From: a virus | Taxonomy: Duplodnaviria > Caudoviricetes | Virus record (IMG/VR): IMGVR_UViG_3300021364_000005 | Direction: 5' to 3' (one strand) | Length of the DNA stretch: 64,000 bases | In this document: piece by piece, positions 16,921 through 53,773 of the stretch | Layout: each line of letters begins with the position of its first letter | How positions within the stretch are numbered: the stretch's first letter is position 1 | Translations under genes and position numbers: made by a program | Notes under the pieces: model-generated | What the model was told of the DNA's origin: nothing | Databases searched by the model: none | What the model saw: the letters and a program-made list of their open reading frames with translations, nothing else

Positions 16921-17241
16921 ATGAAAAAAGAATACGAAGATTTTCTCAATACATTTTCTTCTTTGTCAGCCCAACACACGGTGCAATTTAAAAATAGCTA
17001 TGTTATGTATTACGGTGGAGGAAAGTTTACACTTACCTACGGGTTTTTAGCATATTTAGATAAAGCAAAAGATGATGAAATCTTAATTGACGATAATTAC
17101 TTGCCTGTTGAAATCAGCAATATGGAAGATTTTAGAAATGAAGCTAACGATACTTTCAAAAAAGCAGTAGCAGAACATCACAAAAGATATCAAAAATTAG
17201 TTCAAAACGATAGAACGATAGGATCGCTATTTGATGACTAA
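16921..17241 (+). CDS. Hypothetical protein (weak resemblance to tail-fibre-associated small proteins)
   Basis: GGAGG SD 5 nt before the ATG at 16921; no clear motif. Confidence 0.55.
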   Translation: MKKEYEDFLNTFSSLSAQHTVQFKNSYVMYYGGGKFTLTYGFLAYLDKAKDDEILIDDNYLPVEISNMEDFRNEANDTFKKAVAEHHKRYQKLVQNDRTIGSLFDD

Positions 17242-18082
17242 AGGATTTTTGATGATTGCTATGAATAATCCTAAAGTAGATTATTTGAAGCAAGCATACT
17301 ATTCAGCGAAACGTTTATATGAATTGACTGGTTTAAAATCAGCAGTAGTAACTGATGGCGAAGGATATATCAGACGAGTATTTGAGGACTATAAAAAATA
17401 TATAGATGTTATTAACAGCAGAACTATTACAATAGATAGAAAGAACACACAAAGACGTTACTATGATGGACATCATTCTTACAAAATGTTGCCATTTCAA
17501 AACGAATTTAGAGTTGCAGCATTTGATGTGTCACCATATGATGAAACATTATTGATAGACACAGATATATTATGGAATAACAAAGATATATTTAAAGTAT
17601 TTGATGATGCATATCTAAATGACTTTGCTTTATATAAAAAATGTGTGCCTTTAAATCCTTCAGTTGATTATGACGAGTTTATGACTATCAATCATGCTGG
17701 TATAGATTTTTATTGGGCAACTTGTGTTTACTTCAAAAAAACAGATAGAGTAAAGAAATATTTTGATACTGTAAAACATTTATATGATAACTGGGACTAT
17801 TTTTCTGTAGCGTTTGATTTACGTAGAAAGGTATTTAGAAATGATTACTTGTTTAGTCTTGCGTTACATTATATGAATGATTTTACAACTAATACATTTG
17901 CAAGCGAATTGCCTGGCACACTTTATTTTACAATCGATAAAGATATTTTGCTAGAAAATACACACAAGCAATGTTTTGATTTATCTCATGGTGATGTTTA
18001 TGCGTATACAGAAGTACAGAATGAAAACATACACGTAATGAATAAATTTAGTTTAGGAAGAGTCTATGACCAGAACGGATAA
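17234..18082 (+). CDS. Glycosyltransferase-like protein (GT-A, nucleotide-diphospho-sugar transferase)
   Basis: SPYDETLLIDTD DxD motif; ND.LF acceptor-region motif. Confidence 0.65.
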   Translation: MTKGFLMIAMNNPKVDYLKQAYYSAKRLYELTGLKSAVVTDGEGYIRRVFEDYKKYIDVINSRTITIDRKNTQRRYYDGHHSYKMLPFQNEFRVAAFDVSPYDETLLIDTDILWNNKDIFKVFDDAYLNDFALYKKCVPLNPSVDYDEFMTINHAGIDFYWATCVYFKKTDRVKKYFDTVKHLYDNWDYFSVAFDLRRKVFRNDYLFSLALHYMNDFTTNTFASELPGTLYFTIDKDILLENTHKQCFDLSHGDVYAYTEVQNENIHVMNKFSLGRVYDQNG

Positions 18083-18782
18083 AGGTGTTTTAATATTCGC
18101 TCAAGGCGAGCAATATATAAATTGCGCTACCACGCTTGCCCAGAGTATAAAGCGGTTTAGCAACATATCAGTATACATTGCTAGTGACTTTGAAAACGAC
18201 CTAGCAGTCAACAGCGAATGGAAGATAGAGAATAGATGCACTGCATATGATATATCACCTTTTGATAAAACATATGTGTTTGACGCTGACACAATATTAA
18301 CTACACCGTTGCCTGAACTTGTAAATGATTTAAGTTTTTCAATGTCTCCTGTTAATTACAATGGAGAATTAGTTTTACAAGATACAAAGCATAGGAAAGT
18401 ATTTTTAGAAAACAACTTACCTAATGTTTATACAGGATTTTATTATTTTGAAAAAAATGATAAAGTGCAACAGTTCTTTAACCTAGTTAAAGATATTACT
18501 TTAAATTGGCAAGAATATTATAAAGTTTTAAATCCTCAACCTAAACATTTAAGTATGGACGTAACATTTGCACTTGCTGTAAAATTAAGTGGCGTTGATT
18601 ACGGAGATTGTAATACACAGATTAATTTTATACACGGTAAGTTTTTTAATAATGATTACAAATTAGATTTATATGATGAAGTATATGTTGATTACTATAA
18701 ACAAAAGGGCGTTCTTCATTACGTAGAAAAGTCTCAATTTACAAAATATAAGGAGTGGTTAGATGAAATTTATTCCTCCTAA
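18066..18782 (+). CDS. Glycosyltransferase-like protein, paralog of the preceding gene
   Basis: SPFDKTYVFDAD DxD motif; NVYTGFYYF aligns by eye with FYWATCVYF in the paralog. Confidence 0.65.
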   Translation: MTRTDKGVLIFAQGEQYINCATTLAQSIKRFSNISVYIASDFENDLAVNSEWKIENRCTAYDISPFDKTYVFDADTILTTPLPELVNDLSFSMSPVNYNGELVLQDTKHRKVFLENNLPNVYTGFYYFEKNDKVQQFFNLVKDITLNWQEYYKVLNPQPKHLSMDVTFALAVKLSGVDYGDCNTQINFIHGKFFNNDYKLDLYDEVYVDYYKQKGVLHYVEKSQFTKYKEWLDEIYSS

Positions 18783-19272
18783 ATTTTACGTACAGTTTGA
18801 TCCTGTTTCAAAAGAAATAACAGGATGTTACAACGTACAACCATCAGATAATTTTATAGAAATTACTGAAGATGAATATGTTGTTTTTGCTCAAGATACA
18901 TCAGTTTTTAACAAAAAGATTGCAAAACTTAACGAAGACACAAAGACTTGGATACTTACAGATAAGATTGTTGAACAGGTTAAATATGAACCTGGAGTGT
19001 TTTTGCTTAATAAAAATGATAACGATGTAAAAGTTGTTAAAAAAGAAAGCGAATGGGAGTTTCATTTTCCAGAACATTTTCCAACAGGAGTAGGTGTAGT
19101 AATTGGATTAAGTAACACAAGAAATCCGTTTAAAATATTTAAGTCGTTTTATATTTGGTGTGATGGTACAAATCCAATTCGTAAATTTTTCACTACTGAA
19201 GAGGAAAAAGGCGAAGTATTTTTGTTTGCAAATAATATTTTTAAAGATGCAAGCTATGAGGTAGAAAAATGA
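18763..19272 (+). CDS. Hypothetical protein
   Basis: Overlapping in-operon ORF; the N-terminus loosely resembles tail fibre assembly proteins. Confidence 0.5.
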   Translation: MKFIPPKFYVQFDPVSKEITGCYNVQPSDNFIEITEDEYVVFAQDTSVFNKKIAKLNEDTKTWILTDKIVEQVKYEPGVFLLNKNDNDVKVVKKESEWEFHFPEHFPTGVGVVIGLSNTRNPFKIFKSFYIWCDGTNPIRKFFTTEEEKGEVFLFANNIFKDASYEVEK

Positions 19273-20885
19273 TTTTGAATATGTTTGACTATGATGTTAT
19301 ATACCTCAGCTATGACGAGCCTAATGCTGAAGAAAACTATTACGATCTCAAACTTAAAATACCATGGGCTAAACGTGTACACGGTGTAGAAGGATCAGAT
19401 GCTGCACATAAAGCCTGTGCAGAATTAAGTTCAACACAACGATTTATAACTATTGACGGTGATAATAAAGTTAGTAAAGATTTTCTATCAACTCATGTAG
19501 AAATTGTAGAAGGTGTTGATATTAAAAAGCACGTTATAAGCTGGAGCGGTTATAATACTATAAACGGACTAACATATGGTAACGGAGGCATTAAGTGTTG
19601 GGATAAAGATACTGTTCTGAATATGCGTACACATGAAAATGCAGATCCTGATAATATTCAAGCTCAGGTAGACTTTTGCTGGGATTTAGAATATATTCAA
19701 ATTGATAAGATAATGAGTACGGTTTATAATAATTCTACACCACAGCAAGCCTGGCGTGCTGGTTTCCGTGAAGGTGTAAAAATGTCATTGATTGATGGAG
19801 CCAGGGTTGACATAGAAACTTTTAAAAAAGTGCATTGGAAAAATTTGCATAGGCTTTATGTTTGGCTAATGGTAGGTGCAGATGTTGAAAACGGCTTGTG
19901 GGCAATATACGGTGCTAGAGAAGGTTTGTACAAAACTATGTGTACAGATTGGGATTATGTAAATGTGCGTGACTTTGAATATTTAAATAACCTTTGGAAA
20001 GAAAAAATACAAACTGAAGATGATTTACTAGAAGCGTGTATAGATTACGGAGAACGTATTGTTGCAGAACTTGAACTTCCTATCGATAGTAATCCATTGG
20101 CACCTGATCAAAGTAAGTTTTTTAAAACTGTTTATAAAAGTCCTCCTAGACAAAGCCATCACTATATTGAATGGCAAGAAGCTCCTATTAGGCAAACAAA
20201 CGAATATGATATTTTTATGCTTACATACAATGAACCAAACGGAGATGAAAATTTCGAAAAGTTAAAAAGCAGATTTCCTAGAGCGCAACGTGTTCATGGT
20301 ATAAAAGGAATACATAATGCACACAAACAAGCTGCAAAAATATGTAGAACAAATATGATGTGGATAGTTGACGGTGATGCAGTAATAGCAGATGATTTTA
20401 ACTTTGATTATGTTGTAGAGAATAATGATAAGGATGCAGTTCATGTTTGGCGTAGTAAAAATCCTGTTAACGGATTAGAGTATGGATACGGCGGAGTAAA
20501 ACTCTTGCCTACAAAAGAAACTAAAATTATGCGTACAGATACTACTGACATGACTACTAGTATAAGCAGCAAATTTAAAAAGATGGATCAAGTAAGTAAC
20601 ATCACAGCATTTAACACAGATCCATTTACTACATGGCGTAGTGCATTTAGAGAGTGTTGTAAACTTGGAAGTAAAGTTATTGAAAGACAAAATGATGCTG
20701 AAACGCAAAATAGGTTAGATGTTTGGACAACTTATGTCAATGAAGATGCGCCGTTTGCTGAATATGCACTAGCAGGCGCAAGAGCTGGTAAACAGTACGG
20801 TGCTACAAATAAAAACAACGAAATGCGGCTAAGACAAATTAATGATTTTGATTGGCTGTTGGAGAAATTTAATGAGTCAGAATAA
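19269..20885 (+). CDS. Two-domain (tandem-duplicated) glycosyltransferase-like protein
   Basis: Repeated module YD(V/I)..L.Y.EPN..EN...RVHG..G...AHK..A......(I/V)DGD at about aa 7 and aa 313. Confidence 0.6.
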   Translation: MILNMFDYDVIYLSYDEPNAEENYYDLKLKIPWAKRVHGVEGSDAAHKACAELSSTQRFITIDGDNKVSKDFLSTHVEIVEGVDIKKHVISWSGYNTINGLTYGNGGIKCWDKDTVLNMRTHENADPDNIQAQVDFCWDLEYIQIDKIMSTVYNNSTPQQAWRAGFREGVKMSLIDGARVDIETFKKVHWKNLHRLYVWLMVGADVENGLWAIYGAREGLYKTMCTDWDYVNVRDFEYLNNLWKEKIQTEDDLLEACIDYGERIVAELELPIDSNPLAPDQSKFFKTVYKSPPRQSHHYIEWQEAPIRQTNEYDIFMLTYNEPNGDENFEKLKSRFPRAQRVHGIKGIHNAHKQAAKICRTNMMWIVDGDAVIADDFNFDYVVENNDKDAVHVWRSKNPVNGLEYGYGGVKLLPTKETKIMRTDTTDMTTSISSKFKKMDQVSNITAFNTDPFTTWRSAFRECCKLGSKVIERQNDAETQNRLDVWTTYVNEDAPFAEYALAGARAGKQYGATNKNNEMRLRQINDFDWLLEKFNESE

Positions 20886-21873
20886 AGAATTCTTACACGG
20901 ACTACAAGACTACTTTGACTATAAAGAAGATCAGCGTAGTAAAGATTTTATAAAAAGTATATTAGATATTTGCTATTCTCAAAATCCGAAAAATGTTTTT
21001 TGTGATACTTTTATCAAAAAACATATAATGGAAAATGATAATGCTAAAGATATTCTTTTAAATGATGTTAGTAAGATTTTGTATGCTAACGATGTAAGAG
21101 AACAGATGGTAAATTCTTTCCTGCCAAGAGATTTAGCATTTGTATATGGTAGTAACGATTTTGAAAGAGCATTAGTGTTTTGGGCTTTAGAGCAAATAGA
21201 AATTTCTACTGAAACAAAACTTACTAGATATATTTTAGATTATCTTAAAAAAGATGGAGATCCGAATATTATTAGCGATGCATTTAGTAGAAGTCAAATG
21301 CGTAGCAAAATATGGCTGGCACAAGAGCTTGCAAGGATTGGCGGAAGCAGCACATTTAAAAATATAGTTTTGTTAGCAGGGTGGTATGGACAATTTGTAG
21401 AAATTTTAACAACACAGTTTCTGTTTGAAAAATGTAGAATAATAGAATTAGATAAAGATGCTTGTTTACAAAGTGATTTTAATTTTAATCTTAATAGACT
21501 AGAAAATTATAAAGTAAAGAGTATTAACGAAGACATAAACAATCTTACATTACATACTTCAGGTTACGAATGGAATATTGAAAATTTTAAAACTGGACAA
21601 AGTTATACAGAAAAGTTTAGTCCTGATTTAATTATTAATACAAGCTCAGAACACATGGATACAGAATGGTACAATCAAATAAGATTTAAGCAGTGGGATA
21701 AAAAACCTATTGTTGCAATACAAAGTAATAACTTTTTTGACATCGAAGATCATGTAAATTGTGTACACAGTATCGATCATATGAAGAAAATTTACCCAAT
21801 GGAAAATATATTGTTTGAAGGTGAGCTACAGCTAAAAGGATATAAGCGTGTCATGCTTATTGGGAGACCATAA
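20872..21873 (+). CDS. Class I SAM-dependent methyltransferase-like protein with N-terminal extension
   Basis: IVLLAGWYG motif I, IIELD motif II, DLIINTSSEH. ATG at 20872 (MSQNK) is preferred. Confidence 0.6.
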   Translation: MSQNKEFLHGLQDYFDYKEDQRSKDFIKSILDICYSQNPKNVFCDTFIKKHIMENDNAKDILLNDVSKILYANDVREQMVNSFLPRDLAFVYGSNDFERALVFWALEQIEISTETKLTRYILDYLKKDGDPNIISDAFSRSQMRSKIWLAQELARIGGSSTFKNIVLLAGWYGQFVEILTTQFLFEKCRIIELDKDACLQSDFNFNLNRLENYKVKSINEDINNLTLHTSGYEWNIENFKTGQSYTEKFSPDLIINTSSEHMDTEWYNQIRFKQWDKKPIVAIQSNNFFDIEDHVNCVHSIDHMKKIYPMENILFEGELQLKGYKRVMLIGRP

Positions 21874-22100
21874 TGAATTTAGAAGATTTTTCAGTCAGAG
21901 AATTACAAAGAGAAAGTGCCCGTGCGCTAAGTACAATGCAGGCTACAAATAATAATATTTGGCAATTTAATAAACAGGCACATCATAATAGTTGGAACTG
22001 GTATAAAGCAGTTATTGAATGGTATGTTGGTCAATACGGAGATTTGCCAAGTAAGGTTGGCCCAGGAAAAGATGTAAAGTTAGTATCTGATGAAATTTGA
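21873..22100 (+). CDS. Small hypothetical protein (75 aa), candidate peptide substrate
   Basis: TAATG-coupled start; aromatic-rich centre including WNWYK. Confidence 0.6.
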   Translation: MNLEDFSVRELQRESARALSTMQATNNNIWQFNKQAHHNSWNWYKAVIEWYVGQYGDLPSKVGPGKDVKLVSDEI

Positions 22101-22440
22101 TAAAACATTTAAGTTGTACTTGATAAAAGGCCAAAGGGTTGATTTAAGTATTAAAATATCTGAATCTATGGTTGTTGGATATAGATTTAGGATAAAAGAG
22201 TTTGAAAATATTATAAAAGGTTGGGAAAACGGATTTGAAGGTGATACTTCTGGAGGATATGTTTTTATAGAATACAAAAAATATGGACCACGACCAGAAC
22301 GTAGATACGATCCATATGTGCGGTTTAGTATTAGCAACAATGGACTTACTAATCATCACAGGGTAACATATGATGATATGTATGACCTTACCAAAGAATG
22401 GAATCACCAAAAAACAAACAAAATGTATTGGGACGTATAA
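22090..22440 (+). CDS. Hypothetical protein
   Basis: In-operon ORF overlapping both neighbours. Confidence 0.55.
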   Translation: MKFDKTFKLYLIKGQRVDLSIKISESMVVGYRFRIKEFENIIKGWENGFEGDTSGGYVFIEYKKYGPRPERRYDPYVRFSISNNGLTNHHRVTYDDMYDLTKEWNHQKTNKMYWDV

Positions 22441-23522
22441 TGTATAGATACGAGGATATAAAGGAAGTACATTTAGAAGTTACACAACGCTGCCAAGCGG
22501 CGTGTCCTATGTGTGACCGAAATATGAATGGCGGCGCTGATAATCCTCATATCACTAATGCAGAATTGTCTTATAAAGATTGTGTTAACATATTTAAACC
22601 TGCCTTTATAAAACAGTTAAAGACAATGTATATGTGTGGTAACTTAGGAGATCCTATTGTTGCAAAAGATACATTAGAAATATTCAAATATTTTAGAGAA
22701 CACAATCCTAATATGTGGTTGAGCATGAATACAAACGCAGGAGCAAAGGATGAACAGTGGTGGCGTGACCTGGCGCAAACTTTTGGTCGTATGGGCGCAG
22801 TTATCTTTAGTGTTGACGGGCTTAGTGATACTAATCACATTTATAGACAAAATGTTGTTTGGGATAATGTAGAACGTAATATGAAAGCGTTTATCAATGC
22901 AGGCGGCAGAGCTCGTTGGGACTTTTTAATTTTTGGACATAACGAGCATCAAGTCGACGAAGCCGAAAAACTTGCAAATGAATGGGGCTGCGAAAAATTT
23001 ATTAAAAAGAAAACCGGTAGATTTATTACAGTTAAAAGCGAAGCAAAAGAACAGCACCAAGCAACAAACAGAAAAGGCGAGGATACTGCTACTCTTGTAA
23101 AGCCTAAGAAAAAAGAAAATGTAAATCTTGCACTTTTAAAACAAAAAGAAATTGAAAAAACATATGGCAGTATGAAAGACTACTATAACCAATGTTCTAT
23201 AAAATGTAAAGTTGCTGAACAAGGTAGTATTTTTGTAACAGCAGAAGGACTACTTATGCCCTGTTGTTGGACTGCCGGGCGTATGTACAAATGGTGGCAT
23301 CCAGATCCTAAAGTAGAGCAGGTATGGGATTTTATAGATGCAGCTGGAGGTAAAGAAGGTATAAGCATTATAGACAACGACATTGAAGATGTAGTTGGCG
23401 GAAAACTTATAAGCTCTATAACTGAAAGCTGGAATAAAAATAGTTTAGATGAAGGCAAGTTGGGAGTTTGTGCGCAAAAATGTGGAACAGAATTTGATCC
23501 ATTTGCGGAGCAATTTAAGTGA
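22440..23522 (+). CDS. Radical SAM protein with C-terminal SPASM/twitch-like domain
   Basis: CQAACPMC (CxxxCxxC), GNLGDP, SVDG; C-terminal C...MPCC...CAQKC. TAATG start at 22440. Confidence 0.9.
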   Translation: MYRYEDIKEVHLEVTQRCQAACPMCDRNMNGGADNPHITNAELSYKDCVNIFKPAFIKQLKTMYMCGNLGDPIVAKDTLEIFKYFREHNPNMWLSMNTNAGAKDEQWWRDLAQTFGRMGAVIFSVDGLSDTNHIYRQNVVWDNVERNMKAFINAGGRARWDFLIFGHNEHQVDEAEKLANEWGCEKFIKKKTGRFITVKSEAKEQHQATNRKGEDTATLVKPKKKENVNLALLKQKEIEKTYGSMKDYYNQCSIKCKVAEQGSIFVTAEGLLMPCCWTAGRMYKWWHPDPKVEQVWDFIDAAGGKEGISIIDNDIEDVVGGKLISSITESWNKNSLDEGKLGVCAQKCGTEFDPFAEQFK

Positions 23523-24250
23523 TATTTCCTCCTACTAAAAAATTACATCTCGGACTGACTTATAAATGCACTCTTGCTTGCTTAGAATGTTGTAGAACTA
23601 ATACTCGTAGGGATCAAATTCCACATATAACAGAAGAGTCTCATTTAAAGTGGGAGCAGTATAAAGATCTTTTACAAAGACAGTATAAGCATATTGAAAT
23701 GTGTGGTAATTGGGGAGACCCGATTTATTATCCTGATTTAATTCAATTAGTAAATTATATACACGAAGTCCAAGATGATTGTTACATAAGTCTGCATACA
23801 AACGGAAGTTATGTTAAGCCTAATACATGGCAAAGGTTAGCAGAAGCAATGTCAAAAAAAGATGAACTAATTTTTAGTTTAGACGGCACAAAGGATACTA
23901 ACCACAAATACAGGATCAACAGTGATTGGAAAAGTATTGCTGCTGGCGTGAACACAGTTTTTAATTATAAACACAGACCTTTGTTAACACAAAAAACTCT
24001 TTTATTTTCATATGTAGAACAAGATATGAAAAATGTTATACATCAAGCTATGAATATGGGATTTGATCGTATACGTTTTGATTATCCTATTACATCAGAA
24101 AAAACCGCAGATTTAAAACCTACTCGCACGGTTGAGGAAAATATTTTAGAAATGTCTAAATATGTTACCCCAACAAGGATCAGAAGATTAGGCGCTTCCT
24201 TTCCTGTTGTTTATGTTTACTTTAGGAGTGAAAATGTCTTTAAAGATTGA
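23519..24250 (+). CDS. Radical SAM protein lacking its own SPASM domain
   Basis: CTLACLEC, GNWGDP, SLDG; paralog of 22440 that ends before the auxiliary-cluster domain. Confidence 0.85.
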   Translation: MIFPPTKKLHLGLTYKCTLACLECCRTNTRRDQIPHITEESHLKWEQYKDLLQRQYKHIEMCGNWGDPIYYPDLIQLVNYIHEVQDDCYISLHTNGSYVKPNTWQRLAEAMSKKDELIFSLDGTKDTNHKYRINSDWKSIAAGVNTVFNYKHRPLLTQKTLLFSYVEQDMKNVIHQAMNMGFDRIRFDYPITSEKTADLKPTRTVEENILEMSKYVTPTRIRRLGASFPVVYVYFRSENVFKD

Positions 24251-24515
24251 TCCCGCTTGTATCAAACACCAAGGTTATTTTCTAGAATTAGATGGAACTT
24301 ATCTTCCGTGTTGCTGGTTGTTGACTGACTGGAAAGCAATAGACGAGCTGAAAGAACTTTATGGTGAAGATTGGGATAAACTTAAAATACAAAATAATTC
24401 TCCTGAAGAAATTGAAAAGCTGTGGCAGAAAATTGTAGATACTTGGTATGACAAACCTATAAGTAGGTGTGCAATTATGTGTCCTAAAAAAGGTAGGTTT
24501 GCTGAATATGAATAG
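24234..24515 (+). CDS. Stand-alone SPASM/twitch Fe-S domain protein
   Basis: AGGAG at 24224-28 before the ATG at 24234; PAC...LELDGTYLPCC...RCAIMC. Confidence 0.75.
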   Translation: MSLKIDPACIKHQGYFLELDGTYLPCCWLLTDWKAIDELKELYGEDWDKLKIQNNSPEEIEKLWQKIVDTWYDKPISRCAIMCPKKGRFAEYE

Positions 24516-36220: not shown

Positions 36221-36225
36221 TTGCT

Positions 36226-38646: not shown

Positions 38647-38674
38647 TTGACAAAATTTAAAAAGGTGTTATAAT
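38647..38674 (+). promoter_or_regulatory. Sigma70 promoter with extended -10, probably producing a leaderless mRNA
   Basis: TTGACA (38647-52), 16 bp spacer, TGnTATAAT (ending 38674); the ATG follows 6 nt later at 38681. Confidence 0.7.
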
Positions 38675-44022: not shown

Positions 44023-44025
44023 ATA
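44019..44025 (+). promoter_or_regulatory. Late promoter motif ATAAATA 4 nt before the start codon
   Basis: ATAAATACGTTATG. Confidence 0.5.
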
Positions 44026-44029
44026 CGTT

Positions 44030-44803
44030 ATGCATTTATTAAAGAGTAATACACTTATTGCACAACTTGTGCTACTAATTTCAGCTATTGGTACAGCAAT
44101 AGGTTACTATACCTATGGTTTTACTTTAGGTACAATCCTATTACCTATATTAGGATATTTTCTATATGTAGGACTTGGAATAAGTGTAACCTTCCATAGG
44201 TATTTGACACACAAAGCATATGAAACTTATCCTATTTTAGTTAAAATTGGAACTTTGTTAGGATCACTTAGCAATACTGGTAGTAGTATTGTTTGGGTTG
44301 CAATACATATGAATCATCATCGTCATGCTGATACTGAAAAAGACCCACATAGTCCTAGACACCAAGGACTTAAAACTTTTGCATTAGAATACGATTTAGA
44401 TACCAGTCGTGTTAGATGGAAAATGAAACATCTGATCGGAGATCCATTCCATATGTTTTTGCATAAGTACTACTTTGCTGTTATTGCAGCTTGGAGTTTG
44501 CTTCTGTTTTTAATTGGTGGATTTTATTTAATGGTATTTTTACATTGGTTTCCTATGATCATTAGCGGCGTAATGAGTAATATTGTAAACTATATTGGCC
44601 ATAAGCCAGACTGGTGGGGCGGTTATAGACGTTATGATACTCGTGACGATAGCATAAACAATTGGTTATGGGCAATACCAAGTTGGGGCGAAACACTACA
44701 TAATAATCATCATAAACGCCCATACAGTGCTACTCATGGAGAACGCTGGTGGGAAATTGACATCGGTGGTTATATTGTAAGGATGATTCGTACGGATGTT
44801 TAA
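44030..44803 (+). CDS. Membrane fatty acid desaturase, second paralog
   Basis: His boxes HRYLTH, HMNHH, HNNHH. Confidence 0.9.
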   Translation: MHLLKSNTLIAQLVLLISAIGTAIGYYTYGFTLGTILLPILGYFLYVGLGISVTFHRYLTHKAYETYPILVKIGTLLGSLSNTGSSIVWVAIHMNHHRHADTEKDPHSPRHQGLKTFALEYDLDTSRVRWKMKHLIGDPFHMFLHKYYFAVIAAWSLLLFLIGGFYLMVFLHWFPMIISGVMSNIVNYIGHKPDWWGGYRRYDTRDDSINNWLWAIPSWGETLHNNHHKRPYSATHGERWWEIDIGGYIVRMIRTDV

Positions 44804-46370: not shown

Positions 46371-47295
46371 TTGGTCAAGTTGGCGATACAACGAAGGAGA
46401 TCTGCATAGTAGAAGTCCTAGTGACGATGCAGTCTTTGAAGTTGTATACAAGCAACAGCAAGTTAAAATAGGTACACTATGGCAAGAAGCAGTAAAAGGT
46501 GCTAAAAGCACTATTGATGCTCATCCTGGAAAAAAGCCTAGTTTATTTTTTAGTGGGGGTGTTGATAGTGAAGTTATGCTTAGAGCATTTATTCATATAG
46601 GTTCTAATCCCGATGTATATATTGTTAGATATAATAATGATATAAATTTGTACGATGTAAGTTATGCTGTGTCAATTTGTAATTCTCTTGGTGTTGACTT
46701 TAAAATTATTGATATTAATTTGTTTAAGTTTTTTGAAAATGATGCAGAACAAATAAGCGAACTTGCACAATGTGATAGACCAAGAATGCTTCCACAGTTA
46801 TCCTTTGCAGATTATGTAGATGGCCTTCCAATCTTATGTATGGCAGATATTACATGGCAGCGCAGCGATTCTGATTATACCAAAAAAGGCATTTGGAAAG
46901 CATGGGAAATAGAAAGCGACTGTGCGTGTGATAGGTATAATATTGCTGTTGGCAGGGAAGCAATTTATCAATGGGGCAGATGGTCACCTGGTATATTACT
47001 AGCGCACACAAGATGGGAATGGTTTCATAAACTTATAAATGACAAGTATTACGGAAAGTTAGGAAATAGCAGCACTAAGTTTGAAGGATTTAGCAGTGAA
47101 TTTCCTGATATGATTCCTAGAAAGAAAAAAGTTGGCTTCGAAAAATGCGAAGATGTTATAAGTGAATTTGAAAGTTTTCTAAAAAAGAAATATAATGGAT
47201 TACCATTTCGTAGGCAAAGTGAATACACATTAGACGAAATGTGGTTTAAAATTACTGGTAAGAACTACGCTGCCAATAACGTTTTGGCTCTGTAG
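46342..47295 (+). CDS. PP-loop (N-type ATP pyrophosphatase) protein
   Basis: LFFSGGVDSE. Confidence 0.7.
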   Translation: MQTFQFTENNWSSWRYNEGDLHSRSPSDDAVFEVVYKQQQVKIGTLWQEAVKGAKSTIDAHPGKKPSLFFSGGVDSEVMLRAFIHIGSNPDVYIVRYNNDINLYDVSYAVSICNSLGVDFKIIDINLFKFFENDAEQISELAQCDRPRMLPQLSFADYVDGLPILCMADITWQRSDSDYTKKGIWKAWEIESDCACDRYNIAVGREAIYQWGRWSPGILLAHTRWEWFHKLINDKYYGKLGNSSTKFEGFSSEFPDMIPRKKKVGFEKCEDVISEFESFLKKKYNGLPFRRQSEYTLDEMWFKITGKNYAANNVLAL

Positions 47296-48154
47296 AGTTT
47301 GTTAAGAAATTTATTGTTTCTTCAATGTTTAAGAATACTTGATTCTCTCTGTACCTGTGTTCCATACCATTAATGATATAATCTATTTTCTCACAACCTT
47401 GATATTTTGGTACATATATTAATTCATCTTTCCAATTCTTTCCGTAAAAGATTGGTTTGATAAACAAGTCCCAATAGTTAATAACACTAATAGGTTCTTC
47501 TTCTAAGTAAGACAGCCCTTTCATTTGGTAATAGTCCCATGCATTACAAAATGCTGTTACTGTGCCGTCTTGTAAAACACTAAGCAATATATGCTCGTCT
47601 TTTTCGAAACCCACTGCTGTACGGTCGTTACACAGCGTCTTGTGTGCCCTTAAACGTGCATACTCTACACTGTTTGCTGTTTCTAGCAGGTAGTGTTTTC
47701 CATTATGTACATAAGGATCTGGACCATTAAATCCTTCTACTAGTGTTGTATTTTTTGGAAGTTTATTTAAGAAAAATGCGTGTAGTATTTGATTAGGTGG
47801 GATTTGCAGATCTTCTGATGTAGCAATTATATCATCCTTCACTTCGTATGGATCTATCTTAATTATTGTTACATCTATATTAAACTTATCTACACAAGCC
47901 TTTACGTTTTCTAGTTCATTGTCATTGTAATTAGGAAGATGTAAAAACGCACAATCTATTTGAATGCCTGCATCTTGAAAAGCTAAAAGGGTTGCTTGAC
48001 TATCCAACCCTCCGCTAAAACTTAAAATTAAATTATTGTAATTATTTTTTATAAAGTTAGCCCGCTCAGTAAACTCCTGTCTAACAGAACCTACTGGGCG
48101 GGTAACTGGGTGCAAATCTATATAGAATTTGCCATCTTCAAAACCGTATGACAT
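47252..48154 (-). CDS. PP-loop (N-type ATP pyrophosphatase) protein
   Basis: LSFSGGLDSQ; convergent paralog of 46342. Confidence 0.7.
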   Translation of the reverse strand: MSYGFEDGKFYIDLHPVTRPVGSVRQEFTERANFIKNNYNNLILSFSGGLDSQATLLAFQDAGIQIDCAFLHLPNYNDNELENVKACVDKFNIDVTIIKIDPYEVKDDIIATSEDLQIPPNQILHAFFLNKLPKNTTLVEGFNGPDPYVHNGKHYLLETANSVEYARLRAHKTLCNDRTAVGFEKDEHILLSVLQDGTVTAFCNAWDYYQMKGLSYLEEEPISVINYWDLFIKPIFYGKNWKDELIYVPKYQGCEKIDYIINGMEHRYRENQVFLNIEETINFLTNSTEPKRYWQRSSYQ

Positions 48155-48669
48155 TATGCAGTTTTGGGTTTTCTACCACGTTTCTTAGGTGCTTCCTTCT
48201 TAGGTGCTTCCTCGGCTAAGCTAGGATCCATTAGCTCTGTAACGGTTCTCATCCAAGGGAAGATATTCCATACACGTTCGTGTGCATAATACAAGAACAT
48301 ATTAATAGCTGTTGAAAGTCCAGCAAAGATTGTTGCTGATCCCCAGCTTCCTGTTACTAAGAAAGGAATAATAAAATTATTAGATGTAATGACTGCACGC
48401 CATGTAATCATTTTTAAAACTGCACGAAATTCTCTTTCGTCAAATGTCTCGTCTTTTTGCTTTCTAAGCAGCGAGAAAAAATTCCAAATTCTTTCATGTA
48501 ACCAGTACAAGAAACTATTAATAATAGTAGCAATACCAGCAATCTTAAGCCCAACTAGTAAACTACCAGTTGCTAAGAAGCCATTTACTACATGAGAGAT
48601 TGTAAGTAATACTCTCCATGAAACCATCTTAGAGATAGTTCTGTATTGTCTTTCATTGAACTTTACCAT
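48154..48669 (-). CDS. Membrane protein with two tandem DUF2061-like modules
   Basis: K(M)(V/I)(S/T)WR...Y(W/Y).HER(I/V)WN occurs twice; AAGGAG SD. Confidence 0.65.
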   Translation of the reverse strand: MVKFNERQYRTISKMVSWRVLLTISHVVNGFLATGSLLVGLKIAGIATIINSFLYWLHERIWNFFSLLRKQKDETFDEREFRAVLKMITWRAVITSNNFIIPFLVTGSWGSATIFAGLSTAINMFLYYAHERVWNIFPWMRTVTELMDPSLAEEAPKKEAPKKRGRKPKTA

Positions 48670-48697
48670 GAGATCTCCTTTTGTATAAAGTACGTAG

Positions 48698-49879
48698 TTA
48701 TTTATTGATGATTAATTTTTCAGGGATTATTTCTGAATTCATACGACCTACTTCAAATTGCTTTCCATGTATTTGTAATCCGTCTGCAAATCCGTGTTCG
48801 TAGGCTATAAAATTGCTTGCATTTTTCTTTACATAATCTAAACCTTCTAACCATATAGCGTGTTCTTTAGTTCCTTGATAGCCATTTATCCACCAATGAT
48901 CAAATTCAGAATACCAGTCTAAAGTTGCTTTATCTGCTTGCCACCAATTGTCATTCCACGTAGAATATATTAGTGGACGTAATTCTCTTTCGTGTATATG
49001 TCTATACACGTCAGCAGTCATATTTTTATGAAACCACCATTTTTGTTTGTTTGGATTAGCCTCTAACCATCGTTTAATTACGAATGCTTGTTTTGCTACA
49101 ATTGGTAATCCTTCAGGACACCAATAAAAATACTCAACTACACTGTTGTCATACTCTTTAATATGATTAGCAACGGTAATTATGTTAGTAGCTCTGTCAG
49201 CAAATCTTACGTAAAATTTACCATTTGAATGTATAAAACATCTAGGCTTTTCAATACCTAAAACAAGTGCAATTTTTTTCTCTTTATCAAAGCGTTTTCT
49301 AACTTCATTGAAATGCAAATAATTAAAACGTGTAACATTTAAAGGGTTAAGCCCTTCTTTTTTACCTTGTATCCAACTAGCATCTTTAGCAGTTAGCCAA
49401 TGTTCAAACAGGTATTCTGTCATATCAGTAACTGTAATTTTTATTTTAGGATATTTTTTATTGATTTCTTTTAATCTTGGTATAGTTTGTAAATCGTGTT
49501 CAGCTGCCGCATTCCTTGGATCTTTATTACTAGGATCTATTACAGTGTATTTTCTACTAGCAGATTCCATCGTATTACAAATTAATTCGTCAACGTGTAG
49601 TCCTTGACGTAAAAAGCTCATCAAAACATTATGGCTGTCAGCACCTCCGCTGTAACTTATCATTATATAATCGTATTCTTCTCTGAGTTGTTTTGCACGT
49701 TTATCATACAGTTGATCTAACGTCTCTTTTGGTTCTATATTCCAAGGAAACATATCCATAGCCAAATTATTAAAATGCCATTTGACTTCTGCATTTTGTG
49801 TTTGTGCATAAAAACAAGCATCTAGTTTGCTTTCAAACTCAATGCTATTAACAGAGTAATACCCTAGTTTTTTATTCAT
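48698..49879 (-). CDS. PP-loop (N-type ATP pyrophosphatase) protein
   Basis: ISYSGGADSHN; close paralog of 52571. Confidence 0.75.
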   Translation of the reverse strand: MNKKLGYYSVNSIEFESKLDACFYAQTQNAEVKWHFNNLAMDMFPWNIEPKETLDQLYDKRAKQLREEYDYIMISYSGGADSHNVLMSFLRQGLHVDELICNTMESASRKYTVIDPSNKDPRNAAAEHDLQTIPRLKEINKKYPKIKITVTDMTEYLFEHWLTAKDASWIQGKKEGLNPLNVTRFNYLHFNEVRKRFDKEKKIALVLGIEKPRCFIHSNGKFYVRFADRATNIITVANHIKEYDNSVVEYFYWCPEGLPIVAKQAFVIKRWLEANPNKQKWWFHKNMTADVYRHIHERELRPLIYSTWNDNWWQADKATLDWYSEFDHWWINGYQGTKEHAIWLEGLDYVKKNASNFIAYEHGFADGLQIHGKQFEVGRMNSEIIPEKLIINK

Positions 49880-49886
49880 CACAAGT

Positions 49887-49923: not shown

Positions 49924-50868
49924 ATGAGTAAAGTTTTTCCTTCAAAATATCCTATACTTGCTGCACCTATGAATCAAGTATCAGAGGTTAATTTAGCTGT
50001 TGCGTGTTATAACAGCGGAATTTTTCCTAGTATAAGCACATTATGTTTTGTAAATAATAGACAGATAGATTGGGAAGAATTAACTAGGCAACTTAATTTA
50101 TACAAAAGTCAAACACAAAGTAACAATTTATTGCTAAGTGTTCCTGACAAATTATTTTTCAGCGATACATTTCAGTGTTTAAAAGATCAAAAATTATTTT
50201 CTCATTTAGAGATTATTTGCACAGATCTAAGACTTAATGATAACATAACACTTAGTCAACATGATATTAACAATTTTAATAATTTAAACAATAAATTTCA
50301 ATCTTGGAAAAATAACGGCTATAAGTTTATCTATAAAAGTTTGGCTAGATTTGTAATTTATGATATCTATAAAAATTACAAAAATGATTTATTTGATGCA
50401 TTTGTTATTAAAGGTCCTGATGCAGCAGGAATGGTTATAGATAGGAAGAACGGTAATAACTTACTACAGGACTGTAATGAAGTTATTGAAAAATGTTCTG
50501 ATATAAAACTTATTGCATCGGGAGGTATAGGCTCAAAAAAAGATATAGATGATCTTTTACATATAGGAGTTGATAGTGTATCTTTAGGAACTATTTTTGC
50601 ATCTAGTAAGGAAAGTATATTGTCTGAAACAACAAAAACAAAAATGGTTAAGGCTGGCGCAAATAGTTTGAATAGATTTGCAAACTCCAATCAAAATGCA
50701 TTACAGTTTAGTGTTGTCAACAATGACGACTTTAATCATACTAATAGTTTAAAACAAGGAATATCTACTGGCAATCAAGGACATATTTTTGCAGGAAAGG
50801 GTATACAACACATAACGCAGATTCAATCTGTTAATAACATCGTTAAGGATTTAGTAAATGAAACGTAA
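49924..50868 (+). CDS. Nitronate monooxygenase / FabK-like FMN TIM-barrel oxidoreductase
   Basis: PILAAPM, IASGGIG, LGT.F..SKES. Confidence 0.7.
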   Translation: MSKVFPSKYPILAAPMNQVSEVNLAVACYNSGIFPSISTLCFVNNRQIDWEELTRQLNLYKSQTQSNNLLLSVPDKLFFSDTFQCLKDQKLFSHLEIICTDLRLNDNITLSQHDINNFNNLNNKFQSWKNNGYKFIYKSLARFVIYDIYKNYKNDLFDAFVIKGPDAAGMVIDRKNGNNLLQDCNEVIEKCSDIKLIASGGIGSKKDIDDLLHIGVDSVSLGTIFASSKESILSETTKTKMVKAGANSLNRFANSNQNALQFSVVNNDDFNHTNSLKQGISTGNQGHIFAGKGIQHITQIQSVNNIVKDLVNET

Positions 50869-52228
50869 TTTTAGTTTAGATACCTTCTGTCCAGAAGTAT
50901 ATAGTCAAATAGAGATAGATGCAGAAGGTGACTACAAAATATGTTGCCTAGCAAATTTTGATAAAGACTTTGGTATGTGTTTAGATGAAAATGGAGAAGT
51001 AATGAATGTTGCTACCCATTCTATTGAAGAAGCTATCAACAGTGAAACGCATAAGCAGCATAGATTACAACTAGCAAAAAATGAAAGACCGTTGAGGTGC
51101 AGAAGCTGCTATGATAGCGAGGATGCAACAAAAGGGTTGGCAGAATGGGGTAAAAGTGCTAAGAGGGGTAGAAGTAAGCGTCAACGTGTATTATGGCAAA
51201 CTGGTGCAAGTATACCTGAATATGTAAAGTTTGAACAAGCTGAACAAATGACAAATGCTGACGGAAGCACTTCTGCTAAAGTTGTTAATTTAGATCTACG
51301 TTTTGGTAATCTTTGTAACCAAAAATGTATCATGTGTAGTCCCCAGCACAGTAATTTATGGTACGATGATTGGGTTACGCTAGGCTATGGTGATCCTTTA
51401 TATAATAGAGATAAAGGTATCTATAAAAAAGGCGATGCAAAAACATTTAAATTTTACAAAGATGAACACGGAAAAACAAAAATGACAGGCACTGAGCGTT
51501 GGTGGGAAACTGATACTTGGTGGGAATCATTTGATAAGATTGCTCCCGACCTGCGATACATTTATTTTACTGGAGGCGAACCTTTGGTTGTTCCTGCGAT
51601 GCAAGAATGCTTAGATAGATTAATAAATGCGGGATATGCTGAAAACATACAGTTAAGATATGATACTAATTTAAGTGTAATAAACAAAAAAGTTATAGAT
51701 AAATGGAAGCATTTTAAAAAAGTTTGGTTGTGTGTTAGCATAGATGATACTGAAGAAAGATACAACCTTATAAGATTTCCTGGTAATTACGATAGAATAA
51801 AGGCAAATACTTTACAGTTAAAAGAAGCAGGAATACCTATTCATTACATAAGCACTTGTGTAGGTATTGCAAGTCCGTATAGTGTTATACGTATTAGTCA
51901 ACTTGCAAAAGAACTAGAAGTAGATACATATTTTAGATTTCTAGAAGGTCCTAACTGGTTAGATATTAGGAATTATCCTGCTAGTGCAAAACAAGAAATA
52001 ATAGAAAATTTACAAAAGCATAGCGGCGATCCACTTTATGACAAGTGGGCAAAAGGTGAAATAAAACTTTTACAAAAGTATATGGATCATAGTGAAGAAA
52101 AGTACCTAAAAGAATTCATTAGAGTAATGGATATACTCGATGAGAATCGGGGAACTAATTGGAGGTCTGTGTTAACAGATGTAGTAGATTTGTTTAAAAA
52201 TCATTGTCCTCATATATACAAAGATTAA
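50858..52228 (+). CDS. N-terminal twitch-domain radical SAM protein
   Basis: FCPEVY..ICC..CRSC; CNQKCIMC; TGGEP. Confidence 0.9.
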   Translation: MKRNFSLDTFCPEVYSQIEIDAEGDYKICCLANFDKDFGMCLDENGEVMNVATHSIEEAINSETHKQHRLQLAKNERPLRCRSCYDSEDATKGLAEWGKSAKRGRSKRQRVLWQTGASIPEYVKFEQAEQMTNADGSTSAKVVNLDLRFGNLCNQKCIMCSPQHSNLWYDDWVTLGYGDPLYNRDKGIYKKGDAKTFKFYKDEHGKTKMTGTERWWETDTWWESFDKIAPDLRYIYFTGGEPLVVPAMQECLDRLINAGYAENIQLRYDTNLSVINKKVIDKWKHFKKVWLCVSIDDTEERYNLIRFPGNYDRIKANTLQLKEAGIPIHYISTCVGIASPYSVIRISQLAKELEVDTYFRFLEGPNWLDIRNYPASAKQEIIENLQKHSGDPLYDKWAKGEIKLLQKYMDHSEEKYLKEFIRVMDILDENRGTNWRSVLTDVVDLFKNHCPHIYKD

Positions 52229-52533
52229 AGATTTTCTTCCATAGTCCTTGAAATACAAACAATTTCACAAGCTGTGTTGTATTCTAATTCTCTAGCCTGT
52301 TCGGCCATCCATTCTGCATCATTTGTTACATCATTCAAGTCTACACTATCAACCCATTCGCTCACATATTGTATAACTAATTTAGAGTCATCTAAAAAAG
52401 ATGCTTCTCTAAACTTAGTGCATAGTCCTGTGTCAATAGCAATTTCTTGAATGTGATCTAAAAAAGACTGTTGTGGTGCATAAAATTCTACCTCTGTGTG
52501 AGGACGAATAAACTGTCTTGTAAATCTTTTCAT
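52225..52533 (-). CDS. Hypothetical protein
   Basis: GGAG SD upstream of the ATG at 52533 (MKRFTRQF). Confidence 0.55.
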   Translation of the reverse strand: MKRFTRQFIRPHTEVEFYAPQQSFLDHIQEIAIDTGLCTKFREASFLDDSKLVIQYVSEWVDSVDLNDVTNDAEWMAEQARELEYNTACEIVCISRTMEENL

Positions 52534-52559
52534 TTTTAATCTATCTCCGTTTTGTTCCA

Positions 52560-52566
52560 ATAAATA
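52560..52566 (+). promoter_or_regulatory. Late promoter motif ATAAATA 4 nt before the start codon
   Basis: AATAAATACTATATG. Confidence 0.5.
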
Positions 52567-52570
52567 CTAT

Positions 52571-53773
52571 ATGTTAAAACACAAAGCACTTGGTTACTAT
52601 GTTGTTAATGGCAAAACTTTTTCTAGTAAGATTGCTGCTTGTATTTATGCAACGCAAAATCATGCAAGTATAAGATGGCATTTTAACAATGAAATATTTG
52701 ATTATTATCCCTGGCACATAGAACCTGAAGAAAGTTTAGATGAACTTTATTATCGTAGAGCTAGGCAACTGCGTGAGCAGTACGATTATATCTGTTTAGC
52801 ATTTAGCGGAGGTGGTGATAGTAACAACATACTAGAAGCATTTTTGCGTCAAGGATTATTCATTGATGAAGTTGTAACAAACATCATGGATGATAAAAAT
52901 AAACTTACTACCAATAATAGTTTACAGATTAGTAATTGGAACGAAGGTGCTGAGTATAAACTCCAAACTGTAGATAGACTTAAAGAACTACAAAGTCGAT
53001 CTCCTAATACTAAAATAAGTGTTATTGATCTAAGTAAAGGATTGTTTGAAATATTTAATTCCTACGGAGATGCAGGTTGGATAGAAAAAACTAGAGAACG
53101 AATGAACCCTAGCGGATTTATGCGTCATAATTTTTTACACATGAAAGAAATACGTAAAAGATTTGATAAAGATAAAAAGATTTGTATGTTATTAGGAATC
53201 GAAAAACCTCGCACTTTTGTAAAAGATGGTATGTTTAAAATGGCTTTTAGCGATAAGGCTGTTAATATAGCTACAGTATCAGAGTTTATTGAAGACTACG
53301 ACAATACAGAAGTAGAATATTTTTATTGGCATCCTGATGCTGCTGCAATAATTGCCAAGCAATGTCATGTTATAAAGCGTTGGTTAGAATTCAATCCTAG
53401 ATTTTTAAAGTATTGGTTGCCTAAAGACACAGGCGAAATATGGAGTAACCATAGGAAGTATCACGAAAGGATACTTAGACCTTTGATATATAATTCAACA
53501 TGGCATGAAACTTATTGGCAGGCAAATAAAAGTACTAAAGATTGGTATTCTGAAATTGACGACTGGTTTTGGAAGCAACACAGCGGAACAAAGGAACACG
53601 CTATATGGAGAGCCGGTTTAGATTATGTCAAAGAAAATGCAAAAGATTGGATGATGCCTGGTGACACCGAAGGTTTAAAAGGATTTTTGCATAGTTATGA
53701 TATTGGAAAACTAAAAACTATTAATGCAGGTCAACCCACACACCGTTCGCATATGCTTGGACTTTATTCGTAG
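52571..53773 (+). CDS. PP-loop (N-type ATP pyrophosphatase) protein
   Basis: LAFSGGGDSNN; aligns by eye over its length with 48698. Confidence 0.75.
   Translation: MLKHKALGYYVVNGKTFSSKIAACIYATQNHASIRWHFNNEIFDYYPWHIEPEESLDELYYRRARQLREQYDYICLAFSGGGDSNNILEAFLRQGLFIDEVVTNIMDDKNKLTTNNSLQISNWNEGAEYKLQTVDRLKELQSRSPNTKISVIDLSKGLFEIFNSYGDAGWIEKTRERMNPSGFMRHNFLHMKEIRKRFDKDKKICMLLGIEKPRTFVKDGMFKMAFSDKAVNIATVSEFIEDYDNTEVEYFYWHPDAAAIIAKQCHVIKRWLEFNPRFLKYWLPKDTGEIWSNHRKYHERILRPLIYNSTWHETYWQANKSTKDWYSEIDDWFWKQHSGTKEHAIWRAGLDYVKENAKDWMMPGDTEGLKGFLHSYDIGKLKTINAGQPTHRSHMLGLYS

Follow-up and report, generated by a model that had tools for sequence, protein, structure and literature searches.

In a 64,000-nucleotide stretch of tailed-phage DNA (IMG/VR record IMGVR_UViG_3300021364_000005; hereafter the window), we analysed an island rich in radical S-adenosylmethionine (SAM) genes at positions 16909-53773. 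With modest conviction, we favour its reading as a modular locus for the assembly and tailoring of a glycan, situated in a fixed hypervariable slot beside the tail fibres of a marine RaK2/PA5oct-type jumbo phage. Glycan chemistry is the best-supported product class and we judge it probable, because the core genes stand in a polysaccharide context in bacteria, a complete relative carries colitose-type genes in its island, and the cultured phage RsoM2USA keeps a reduced island. That the acceptor would be the phage's own fibre or virion proteins is possible rather than probable; it is favoured because the glycosyltransferases (GTs) are soluble, the linkage to fibres persists across environments, and a late hydroxylase/GT-like pair recalls LH3 and Mimivirus L230. 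We infer both this acceptor and the action of the radical SAM enzymes on sugars. Throughout, genes are named by their start coordinate, with (-) marking the minus strand.

Relatives of the core gene 28147 were found in 337 IMG/VR stretches, with identities of 82-89% in the best 80 of the 337. The relatives share a frame in which fibre genes are followed by a 16909 homologue, two GT8 genes, the tandem GT-A gene, a methyltransferase-like gene and 22398, then by 28147 and then by 38681. The spaces of this frame are filled with radical SAM paralogues and tailoring genes that differ between relatives. We take the core, comprising two GT8-like enzymes, the tandem GT-A enzyme, a probable methyltransferase and three radical SAM enzymes, to be glycan machinery, and we read the island as a hypervariable, modular slot that combines this small conserved core with exchangeable tailoring genes. 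The original prediction, made by a model from the letters and ORF translations of the window, had seen a dedicated chemistry island; the clustering is indeed kept and glycan chemistry is its best-supported content, but in place of a fixed single pathway we find a modular slot.

The core is also found in bacteria. The radical SAM family NF033640 (N_Twi_rSAM; cut-off 170 bits) was detected above cut-off in 19 of 101 Bdellovibrionota genomes, in some cases on megabase-sized contigs, vs none of 14 control genomes. One Bdellovibrionota chromosome (locus L093) carries a compact core cassette with orthologues of 28147 (62% identity), 38681 (61%) and a GT-A half of 19269 (37%), together with a 22398-like radical SAM gene and a 38071-like gene (35%). 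This cassette adjoins a WbpM-type Polysacc_synt_2 gene, a nucleoside diphosphate (NDP)-sugar epimerase and a polysaccharide lyase. Since it joins orthologues from both island halves, it ties the halves to one pathway. A second bacterial cluster contains a sugar nucleotidyltransferase, an APH-like kinase, a GT2 and SGNH enzymes. At 11733-12626 of L093 lies a gene for a 297-aa protein with an S-x-S-K-G-x-G motif, which looks like a small pyridoxal phosphate-dependent enzyme and has no counterpart in the window. A single-protein scan of genome contigs yielded only one contig of a metagenome-assembled genome (MAG). The 178.7-kb contig L081 (GC 42%; contig C91 of G006, JAYUQP010000091.1), binned in a Bdellovibrionales MAG but possibly a misplaced phage contig, has at least eight radical SAM genes of the N_Twi type, and part of it is syntenic with window positions 25766-36175.

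Furthermore, sugar genes accompany the island in a complete 383-kb relative (G001; complete according to CheckV; island locus L083). The variable part of its island encodes a GDP-mannose 4,6-dehydratase (E = 3e-89), a ColD-type pyridoxamine phosphate-dependent 3-dehydratase (E = 4e-56) and a second NDP-sugar epimerase/reductase (L083 12387-18521; G001 237.4-243.5 kb), and this trio is predicted to constitute a colitose-type 3,6-dideoxyhexose route. The GDP-colitose set (Gmd, ColD and the reductase/epimerase) is absent from the window's own island. The G001 island also encodes a 446-aa protein without a PDB relative. NTP_transferase was not found in five relatives. In the cultured Ralstonia soil phage RsoM2USA, a fibre-like gene is followed by GT8, GT8, one further gene, a GT-A half, an N_Twi radical SAM gene, the other GT-A half and a methyltransferase-like gene. 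Just upstream of this reduced island, the products of ORF356, 359 and 361 were found in virions by mass spectrometry (PMC8504454). Thus, in the window as in RsoM2USA, the GT genes stand beside structural genes, with the two GT8 genes and the tandem GT-A directly after the fibres.

The island contains 39 open reading frames (ORFs) with a coding fraction of 0.99, and its widest intergenic gap of 216 nt is the only one above 41 nt, which bears out the tight packing reported at the outset. Both flanks fit jumbo-phage backbones: they consist of a 3258-aa protein (102..9878), part of which is homologous to the PA5oct/RaK2 'virion structural protein', four fibre-type genes, an Mtd_N fibre, a DUF2201/MoxR pair and an RNase H-type 5'-3' exonuclease. 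In G001, the fibre genes and the right-hand backbone that enclose the island correspond to those of the window. In G004, a second independent assembly of a related jumbo phage, the whole right half (41198 to 53721) recurs in identical order at 35-84% identity and continues into the backbone. The island slot and both junctions are kept in independent assemblies, and five relatives contain 8-14 radical SAM matches each, nearly all of them clustered. Since the island occupies the same slot in independent assemblies, one of them the complete 383-kb genome, a cellular or chimeric contig is ruled out, and the radical SAM genes are clustered rather than scattered in relatives, both in line with the original prediction. 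It had contrasted this density with the one to a few radical SAM genes usual in phages; the same counts, together with the 12 radical SAM genes of a marine T4-like genome (PMC5332604), show that the density is not unique to this phage. When 20 kb of the island were compared by megablast with 50,697 phage records, no match was obtained; a PHROGs search of 20 unknown proteins added nothing, and a homologous-protein search returned metagenomic orthologues with generic names only.

Fibre genes flank the island at both ends, as had been proposed. At the left, a Collar domain was identified by Pfam in 10512 and a Peptidase_G2 chaperone domain in 14397, and the fibre genes have N-termini in common; the right edge is marked by a fibre with Mtd_N and tail-fibre PHROGs matches. 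A diversity-generating retroelement around the Mtd_N fibre 53721(-) was considered and rejected, as the window holds neither a reverse transcriptase nor repeats resembling a template/variable repeat pair. Farther right, the DUF2201 metallopeptidase/VWA protein and MoxR-type AAA ATPase pair (56859-59348, minus strand; 62-88% identity in relatives) belongs to the backbone rather than the island. Also outside the island, positions 62278-62859 (minus strand) encode a 2-oxoglutarate (2OG)-Fe(II) oxygenase of phrog_81 (E = 9e-33), which PHROGs classes under moron, auxiliary metabolic gene and host takeover.

Three GT-like genes had been predicted, and all three were recovered. 17231 and 18066 are GT8/glycogenin-like, belong to a family with an invariant DxD motif and are conserved in marine relatives and RsoM2USA, and 19269 is a tandem GT-A enzyme by structure. 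Its AlphaFold2 (AF2) model (pLDDT 80.6) shows two GT-A domains, whose Foldseek neighbours are led by the K4CP chondroitin polymerase (E = 7e-7), heparosan synthase and LARGE1, followed by LH3, Mimivirus R699 and PBCV-1 A64R. By sequence, 19269 found no match anywhere; its profile gave no significant match against the PDB, and the protein atlas returned viral-only unnamed clusters. The counterpart of 19269 consists of two separate genes in G001, in the related locus L034 and in RsoM2USA. An N_Twi radical SAM gene stands between separate GT-A halves in L034 (1766-4666), in locus L099 (9001-12009) and in RsoM2USA. A weak fourth GT candidate is 33960(-), which has a weakly GT-A-like N-terminus in the structure rows of the protein atlas. 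It is paired with the Asp/Asn beta-hydroxylase-family gene 35441(-); the two are adjacent in L081 too, and the protein atlas contains a 688-aa PF05118 cluster in which the hydroxylase form is fused. A hydroxylate-then-glycosylate logic, with a fused arrangement, is known for LH3 and Mimivirus L230.

The radical SAM complement was stated exactly in the original prediction. A regular-expression search of all window ORFs found CxxxCxxC in exactly 13 island genes with 14 motifs (22398, 23519, 24469, 25766, 26808, 28147, 30360 with two, 32771, 36211, 38681, 41662, 44796 and 50858) and in no other ORF of the window. Eleven of the 13 exceed the Pfam Radical_SAM (PF04055) cut-off, while 24469 and 25766 fall below it and are backed by NCBIfam (NF033640) or paralogy. 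All-against-all BLAST and NCBIfam divided the set into four groups. The first consists of eight domains with an N-terminal SPASM/twitch-like Cys domain ahead of the radical SAM core, of which six score above the NF033640 cut-off (28147, 423 bits; 26808, 382; C-terminal half of 30360, 330; 32771, 327; 50858, 293; 24469, 174) and two slightly below it (36211, 165.7; 41662, 160). Invariant in the N_Twi alignment are the twitch residues C10, C28, C91 and C94, then C147/C151/C154 and GGE. In the second group (22398, 23519, 25766 and the N-terminal half of 30360) the auxiliary domain is C-terminal, 38681 forms a third group alone, and the fourth is the B12-type enzyme 44796, which shows weak NCBIfam matches to PhpK and ladderane-type B12 radical SAM enzymes. 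In 30360, a radical SAM core with auxiliary domain is followed by a twitch domain and a second radical SAM core. The counterparts of the two halves are adjacent separate genes in G001 and L081, which suggests that the halves act together.

The free SPASM protein described earlier corresponds to 24207-24515. Its 102-aa product aligns to the auxiliary domain of 30360, and the gene overlaps the radical SAM core gene 23519 by 44 nt. Four relatives keep the split (~240 aa and 96 aa) with a separate ORF, which excludes a frameshift artefact; 24207 seems to be the detached auxiliary domain of 23519 and a real SPASM-like subunit. As judged by BLAST, the radical SAM paralogues of the window are mutually 20-35% identical, whereas 28147 shares 62% identity with the Bdellovibrionota chromosome protein and 32771 shares 55% with an L081 gene. 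We read this pattern as a toolkit of enzymes that are old and distinct, not as the outcome of recent duplication. Orthologues of 38681 in marine relatives are ~86% and up to 91% identical.

We know of no characterised member of NF033640, a computationally defined family, so that membership gives the architecture and not the reaction; literature searches on its name and on twitch radical SAM enzymes in polysaccharide synthesis gave nothing relevant. In the family profile, the N-terminal twitch matches the twitch domain of BtrN, a radical SAM enzyme that oxidises a carbohydrate (E = 2e-6). A Foldseek search with the AF2 model of 28147 (pLDDT 83) returned generic radical SAM neighbours only, among which sugar and peptide substrates are indistinguishable. 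SPASM/twitch radical SAM enzymes are mostly known as peptide maturases, and TvgB (8VPO), SkfB, CteB, SuiB and anSME are among the best neighbours by sequence and structure. One could therefore imagine that the island modifies protein or peptide directly, with maturases of the ribosomally synthesised and post-translationally modified peptide (RiPP) or anSME type introducing cross-links or epimerised or C-methylated residues into fibres or a small peptide, and with the GTs as a separate add-on; the Asp/Asn hydroxylase-family enzyme would fit. We consider this improbable. The 39 genes include no precursor-like small ORF, RiPP recognition element, leader peptidase or exporter/ABC gene, although a precursor could be unrecognisable. 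Of the island, 99% is coding sequence; the few small ORFs contain no Cys or repeats, and the fibre proteins have 0-4 Cys each. Moreover, the neighbours of the core in bacteria and in the related phage are sugar genes and not peptide genes.

The promoters divide the island in two. At its left edge, a perfect sigma70-type promoter precedes the GT operon, and the same type is found at the same place in 10 of 11 relatives though the flanking sequence has diverged. The heptamer ATAAATA occurs at 17 window sites on both strands, 11 of which lie 8-45 nt upstream of gene starts on the correct strand vs 0.3 expected, and we take it to be the T4-type late promoter of the phage. It stands ahead of the fibre genes 14397, 15888 and 53721 and, in the island, of 35441(-), 44030, 48154(-), 49924 and 52571 (sites, for example, at 14364, 15857, 36208(-), 49911, 52560 and 55348(-)); upstream of the late operon 35441/33960 (minus strand), the sequence reads TATAAATA at 36202-36209. 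The 17-kb left operon (16909-34006) contains no late motif. With sigma70-type control at the left and ATAAATA at the right, the island is predicted to span two temporal classes, an early-type left operon and a late right half. ATAAATA overlaps a second perfect sigma70-type promoter, which suggests dual timing of the radical SAM gene 38681. Early GTs fit work on the host or a metabolite and late enzymes fit work on the virion, so that the two classes leave the choice of acceptor between host and virion. The original prediction had named a virion or fibre decoration as the most likely target; this target is possible, with a host-envelope glycan as a serious alternative, since the GT-rich left operon has an early-type promoter, unlike the neighbouring fibre genes with their late promoters.

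The early promoter is thus in keeping with a remodelling of the host envelope, in which lipopolysaccharide (LPS), capsule or another surface polysaccharide would be altered during infection and superinfection, or adsorption of progeny to debris, would be blocked. The bacterial core homologues adjoin O-antigen/capsule-type genes, the colitose-type genes of G001 are typical of O-antigens, and such a role was proposed for the GT8 genes in pelagimyophage host-recognition clusters (PMC7029224). Even so, we regard host-envelope remodelling as rather unlikely. Pfam scans of the 39 genes revealed no polyprenyl-phosphate transferase, flippase, polymerase, ligase or Gtr-type membrane GT, nor any family of the known seroconversion modules (GtrABC, O-acetylase, Wzy-type); the only membrane proteins found in the island are DUF2061 and the two FA_desaturase enzymes. 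The phage is of lytic type, so a benefit from seroconversion would be short-lived. The right half is transcribed late along with the fibres, and the module stays tied to fibre genes in a soil Ralstonia isolate and in uncultured marine phages. In favour of a virion acceptor, the late ATAAATA promoters are common to the hydroxylase/GT-like pair, the right half of the island and the fibre genes.

The other enzymes of the island vary in how well their assignments held. Clear or above-threshold matches confirmed the two desaturases (Pfam FA_desaturase, E = 7e-14 and 7e-17), the GNAT enzyme 42606 (22.4 bits vs a cut-off of 20.7) and the nitronate monooxygenase (NMO)/FabK-like gene 49924 (E = 2e-19). 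Among the four proposed 2OG oxygenases, 35441 was confirmed (Asp/Asn hydroxylase, E = 1e-10), while 29537, 37388 and 40500 stand at motif level with no hidden Markov model (HMM) or PDB match; a profile of the 29537/40500 family gave no significant match against the PDB. Both methyltransferases (20842, 41198), the short-chain dehydrogenase/reductase (SDR)-like 38071 and the nitroreductase-like 39793 likewise show the expected motifs but no HMM or PDB match, including, for 20842, in a profile search. The SGGxDS motif is intact in all four PP-loop ATPases. HMM matches back two of them weakly, and a third, 48698(-), is supported by the protein atlas, which groups it with Asn-synthase/QueC-like folds in viral-only clusters.

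Such a mixture may suggest a plastic region that merely collects unrelated functions, for instance lipid desaturation, redox enzymes and separate radical SAM activities. Relatives differ strongly in gene content, the promoters fall into two temporal classes, and lipid desaturases are known auxiliary genes of cyanophages. Hypervariable fibre-linked regions also gather auxiliary metabolic genes in T4-like marine phages (PMC7029224). We nevertheless give this explanation little credence, as the core genes co-occur in marine phages, a soil phage and bacteria, the entire right half is syntenic in G004 at 35-84% identity, and orthologues of both halves lie side by side in a bacterial cassette. Least credible of all is DNA hypermodification, in which GTs and tailoring enzymes would decorate a modified base. 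The early-type promoter and the faint QueC likeness of four PP-loop ATPases would agree with it; however, the core cassette lies among polysaccharide genes in bacterial chromosomes, and the island Pfam scans contain no base-modifying, DNA-binding or nucleotide-kinase families. A QueC identity of the PP-loop genes was itself rejected, because the match covers the P-loop only and reaches 16-19 bits vs cut-offs of 150 (TIGR00364; 16 bits) and 22 (PF06508). Overall, little speaks positively for the RiPP, lipid and DNA alternatives that had been listed alongside a virion decoration.

Several observations weigh against a glycan assembly and tailoring locus. No substrate is demonstrated for any radical SAM enzyme of the island, and their nearest solved structures are generic (SkfB, CteB, viperin, MoaA, BlsE, anSME), half of them peptide enzymes. 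A nucleotide-sugar starter enzyme is missing from the window's own island. The three 2OG-like enzymes, both methyltransferases, the SDR-like and the nitroreductase-like protein are assigned by motif alone, and it is not obvious what the desaturases, the NMO-like enzyme and the PP-loop ATPases would contribute to sugar chemistry; they may serve another function. With its conserved sigma70-type promoter and no late motif, the GT-rich left operon fits host takeover at least equally well. To our knowledge, none of the phage proteins of this clade has been observed in glycosylated form.

Under the glycan reading, we envisage that soluble GTs would build the glycan in the cytoplasm, namely the two GT8-like enzymes and the two-domain GT-A enzyme with its bifunctional-polymerase architecture, possibly joined by the GT-A-like protein 33960 paired with the oxygenase 35441. 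The core would make an unusual sugar unit through the radical SAM enzymes 28147, 38681 and 22398, the SDR-like 38071 and the probable methyltransferase 20842. Swappable enzymes (N-terminal-twitch radical SAM enzymes, the B12 radical SAM enzyme, 2OG-type oxygenases, PP-loop ATPases, GNAT and the di-iron enzymes) might then diversify this sugar by C-H chemistry (oxidation, epimerisation, deoxygenation, C-methylation), amidation and acylation. As a speculation that we hold only tentatively, the N-terminal-twitch radical SAM enzymes could represent a new carbohydrate-tailoring class, with a core shared by jumbo phages and predatory Bdellovibrionota and combinatorially expanded; it would yield a hypermodified glycan on prey-contact structures (phage fibres or the predator surface), and gene turnover would diversify surface glycans, host range or evasion. 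The features of the window are compiled in Table 1.

Table 1 Coordinates of the island features and their immediate neighbours in the window.
Feature	Coordinates	Strand	Basis or remark
Giant virion structural protein, 3258 aa	102..9878	+	Left backbone neighbour; CBM_5_12 and coiled-coil Pfam matches
Four fibre-type genes 10512, 12563, 14397, 15888	10512..16868	+	Collar, Peptidase_G2, shared N-termini, virion-structural PHROGs
Perfect sigma70-type promoter TTGACA-17-TATAAT	16874..16902	+	12/12 consensus matches; 40-nt gap at island left edge
110-aa protein, first island gene	16909..17241	+	Similar to residues 112-211 of 33960(-)
Paralogous GT8/glycogenin-like pair 17231, 18066	17231..18782	+	Profile vs PDB: glycogenin E 1e-3
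169-aa unknown protein	18763..19272	+	Family search without match
Tandem double GT-A glycosyltransferase	19269..20885	+	AF2 model, both DGD motifs invariant
Probable class-I SAM methyltransferase	20842..21873	+	GxG-type motif by eye; conserved in relatives and RsoM2USA
116-aa unknown protein	22090..22440	+	Orthologues in 11 loci
Radical SAMs 22398, 23519 (with auxiliary-cluster protein 24207), 24469 (N_Twi), 25766	22398..26839	+	Pfam/NCBIfam/paralogy
N_Twi radical SAMs 26808, 28147 (core gene)	26808..29547	+	NF033640 382, 423 bits
2OG-oxygenase-like protein	29537..30367	+	HxD...H invariant; motif only
804-aa fusion of both radical SAM paralogue classes	30360..32774	+	Two Radical_SAM domains; NF033640 330 bits at residues 347-787
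N_Twi radical SAM 32771	32771..34006	+	NF033640 327 bits
Late operon: Asp/Asn beta-hydroxylase-family 2OG oxygenase 35441, then 494-aa 33960	33960..36175	-	PF05118 E 1e-10
N_Twi-like radical SAM 36211, cupin/2OG-like 37388, SDR-like 38071 (core gene)	36211..38643	+	NF033640 score/motifs
Second perfect sigma70-type promoter TTGACA-16-TATAAT	38647..38674	+	37-nt gap before 38681; overlapped by ATAAATA
Radical SAM 38681, core gene	38681..39811	+	Pfam E 6e-16
Nitroreductase-like 39793, 2OG-like 40500, small methyltransferase-like 41198, N_Twi-like radical SAM 41662, GNAT 42606	39793..43259	+	
Two FA_desaturase-family membrane di-iron enzymes	43252..44803	+	Pfam E 7e-14, 7e-17; mutual identity 37%
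B12-binding radical SAM, methyltransferase type	44796..46370	+	Pfam Radical_SAM and weak B12-binding
PP-loop ATPases 46342(+), 47252(-), 48698(-), DUF2061 membrane protein 48154(-)	46342..49882	mixed	SGGxDS; weak QueC/PP-loop matches
NMO/FabK-like FMN TIM-barrel 49924, N_Twi radical SAM 50858	49924..52228	+	Pfam/NF033640
111-aa unknown protein (-), PP-loop ATPase 52571 (+)	52225..53773	mixed	52571 49% identical to 48698
Tail fibre with Mtd_N, island right edge	53721..55310	-	Pfam Mtd_N E 1e-11, tail-fibre PHROGs, late promoter

If the radical SAM enzymes do tailor sugars, this clade would hold a dozen or more uncharacterised radical reactions on carbohydrates. With 337 IMG/VR stretches the phages are abundant, and an undescribed glycan may be common on marine virions or infected cells, where it would affect adsorption, host range and the fate of viral particles. 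Through the shared cassette, the biology of phages is connected with that of predatory bacteria. So many radical SAM enzymes imply that infection places a heavy demand on Fe-S clusters and reductant, and the reduced module of RsoM2USA, a cultured phage, opens the question to bench experiments.

Among known systems, virus-encoded virion glycosylation is exemplified by the Che8-type cassettes of mycobacteriophages and by PBCV-1 A64R and Mimivirus R699/L230-type enzymes. The island resembles these systems in having soluble GT-A enzymes encoded near structural genes, with A64R and R699 among the fold neighbours of 19269. It differs from all of these in that none is known to carry radical SAM enzymes in number. 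K4CP, heparosan synthase and LARGE1 likewise have two GT-A domains per chain, each with a DxD motif; K4CP-type polymerases are 8-10% identical to 19269 at a whole-chain TM-score of ~0.2, so that the likeness is one of domain plan only, and the halves are separate in several relatives. With BtrN and BlsE, which act on carbohydrates, the N-terminal-twitch enzymes share one auxiliary [4Fe-4S] twitch cluster and a radical SAM core, and BlsE is among their sequence and fold neighbours. In BtrN, however, the twitch is C-terminal, overall identity is 12-17%, and peptide maturases score equally well or better. With NF033640 itself, the window members share the N-terminal four-Cys twitch, followed by CxxxCxxC and GGE.

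At the level of the locus, a close parallel is the host recognition cluster (HRC) of pelagimyophages, a hypervariable region that contains radical SAM cassettes along with fibres, GT8 genes and LPS-type sugar genes (PMC7029224, Zaragoza-Solas et al. 2020). The HRC of pelagimyophages and cyanomyophages is likewise a large hypervariable island in the structural region, and an Asp/Asn beta-hydroxylase is common in HRC phages (PMC7029224), as it is present in the window. The backbones differ: the HRC belongs to T4-like pelagiphages of 150-190 kb and lies between VrlC and gp14, whereas the present island belongs to a RaK2/PA5oct-like jumbo phage (~304 kb as judged by the longest contig among the metagenomic orthologues), with a giant upstream protein matching PA5oct/RaK2 and with DUF2201, MoxR and RNase H genes instead of gp14 on the right flank. 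The radical SAM load is also far higher here than in the HRC, for which PMC7029224 gives no analysis of radical SAM families or a core cassette. A comparable load was reported for the T4-like marine genome TARA_ERS488813_N000010, with 12 radical SAM genes alongside Fe-S assembly genes (PMC5332604, Nishimura et al. 2017), where it is mentioned only with regard to Fe-S cluster supply, without locus structure, product or a link to GTs. The present island, with its extreme load of uncharacterised radical chemistry, belongs to a known kind of locus; such radical SAM loads had already been mentioned in passing in PMC7029224 and PMC5332604, neither of which dealt with the radical SAM families, the core cassette or the product.

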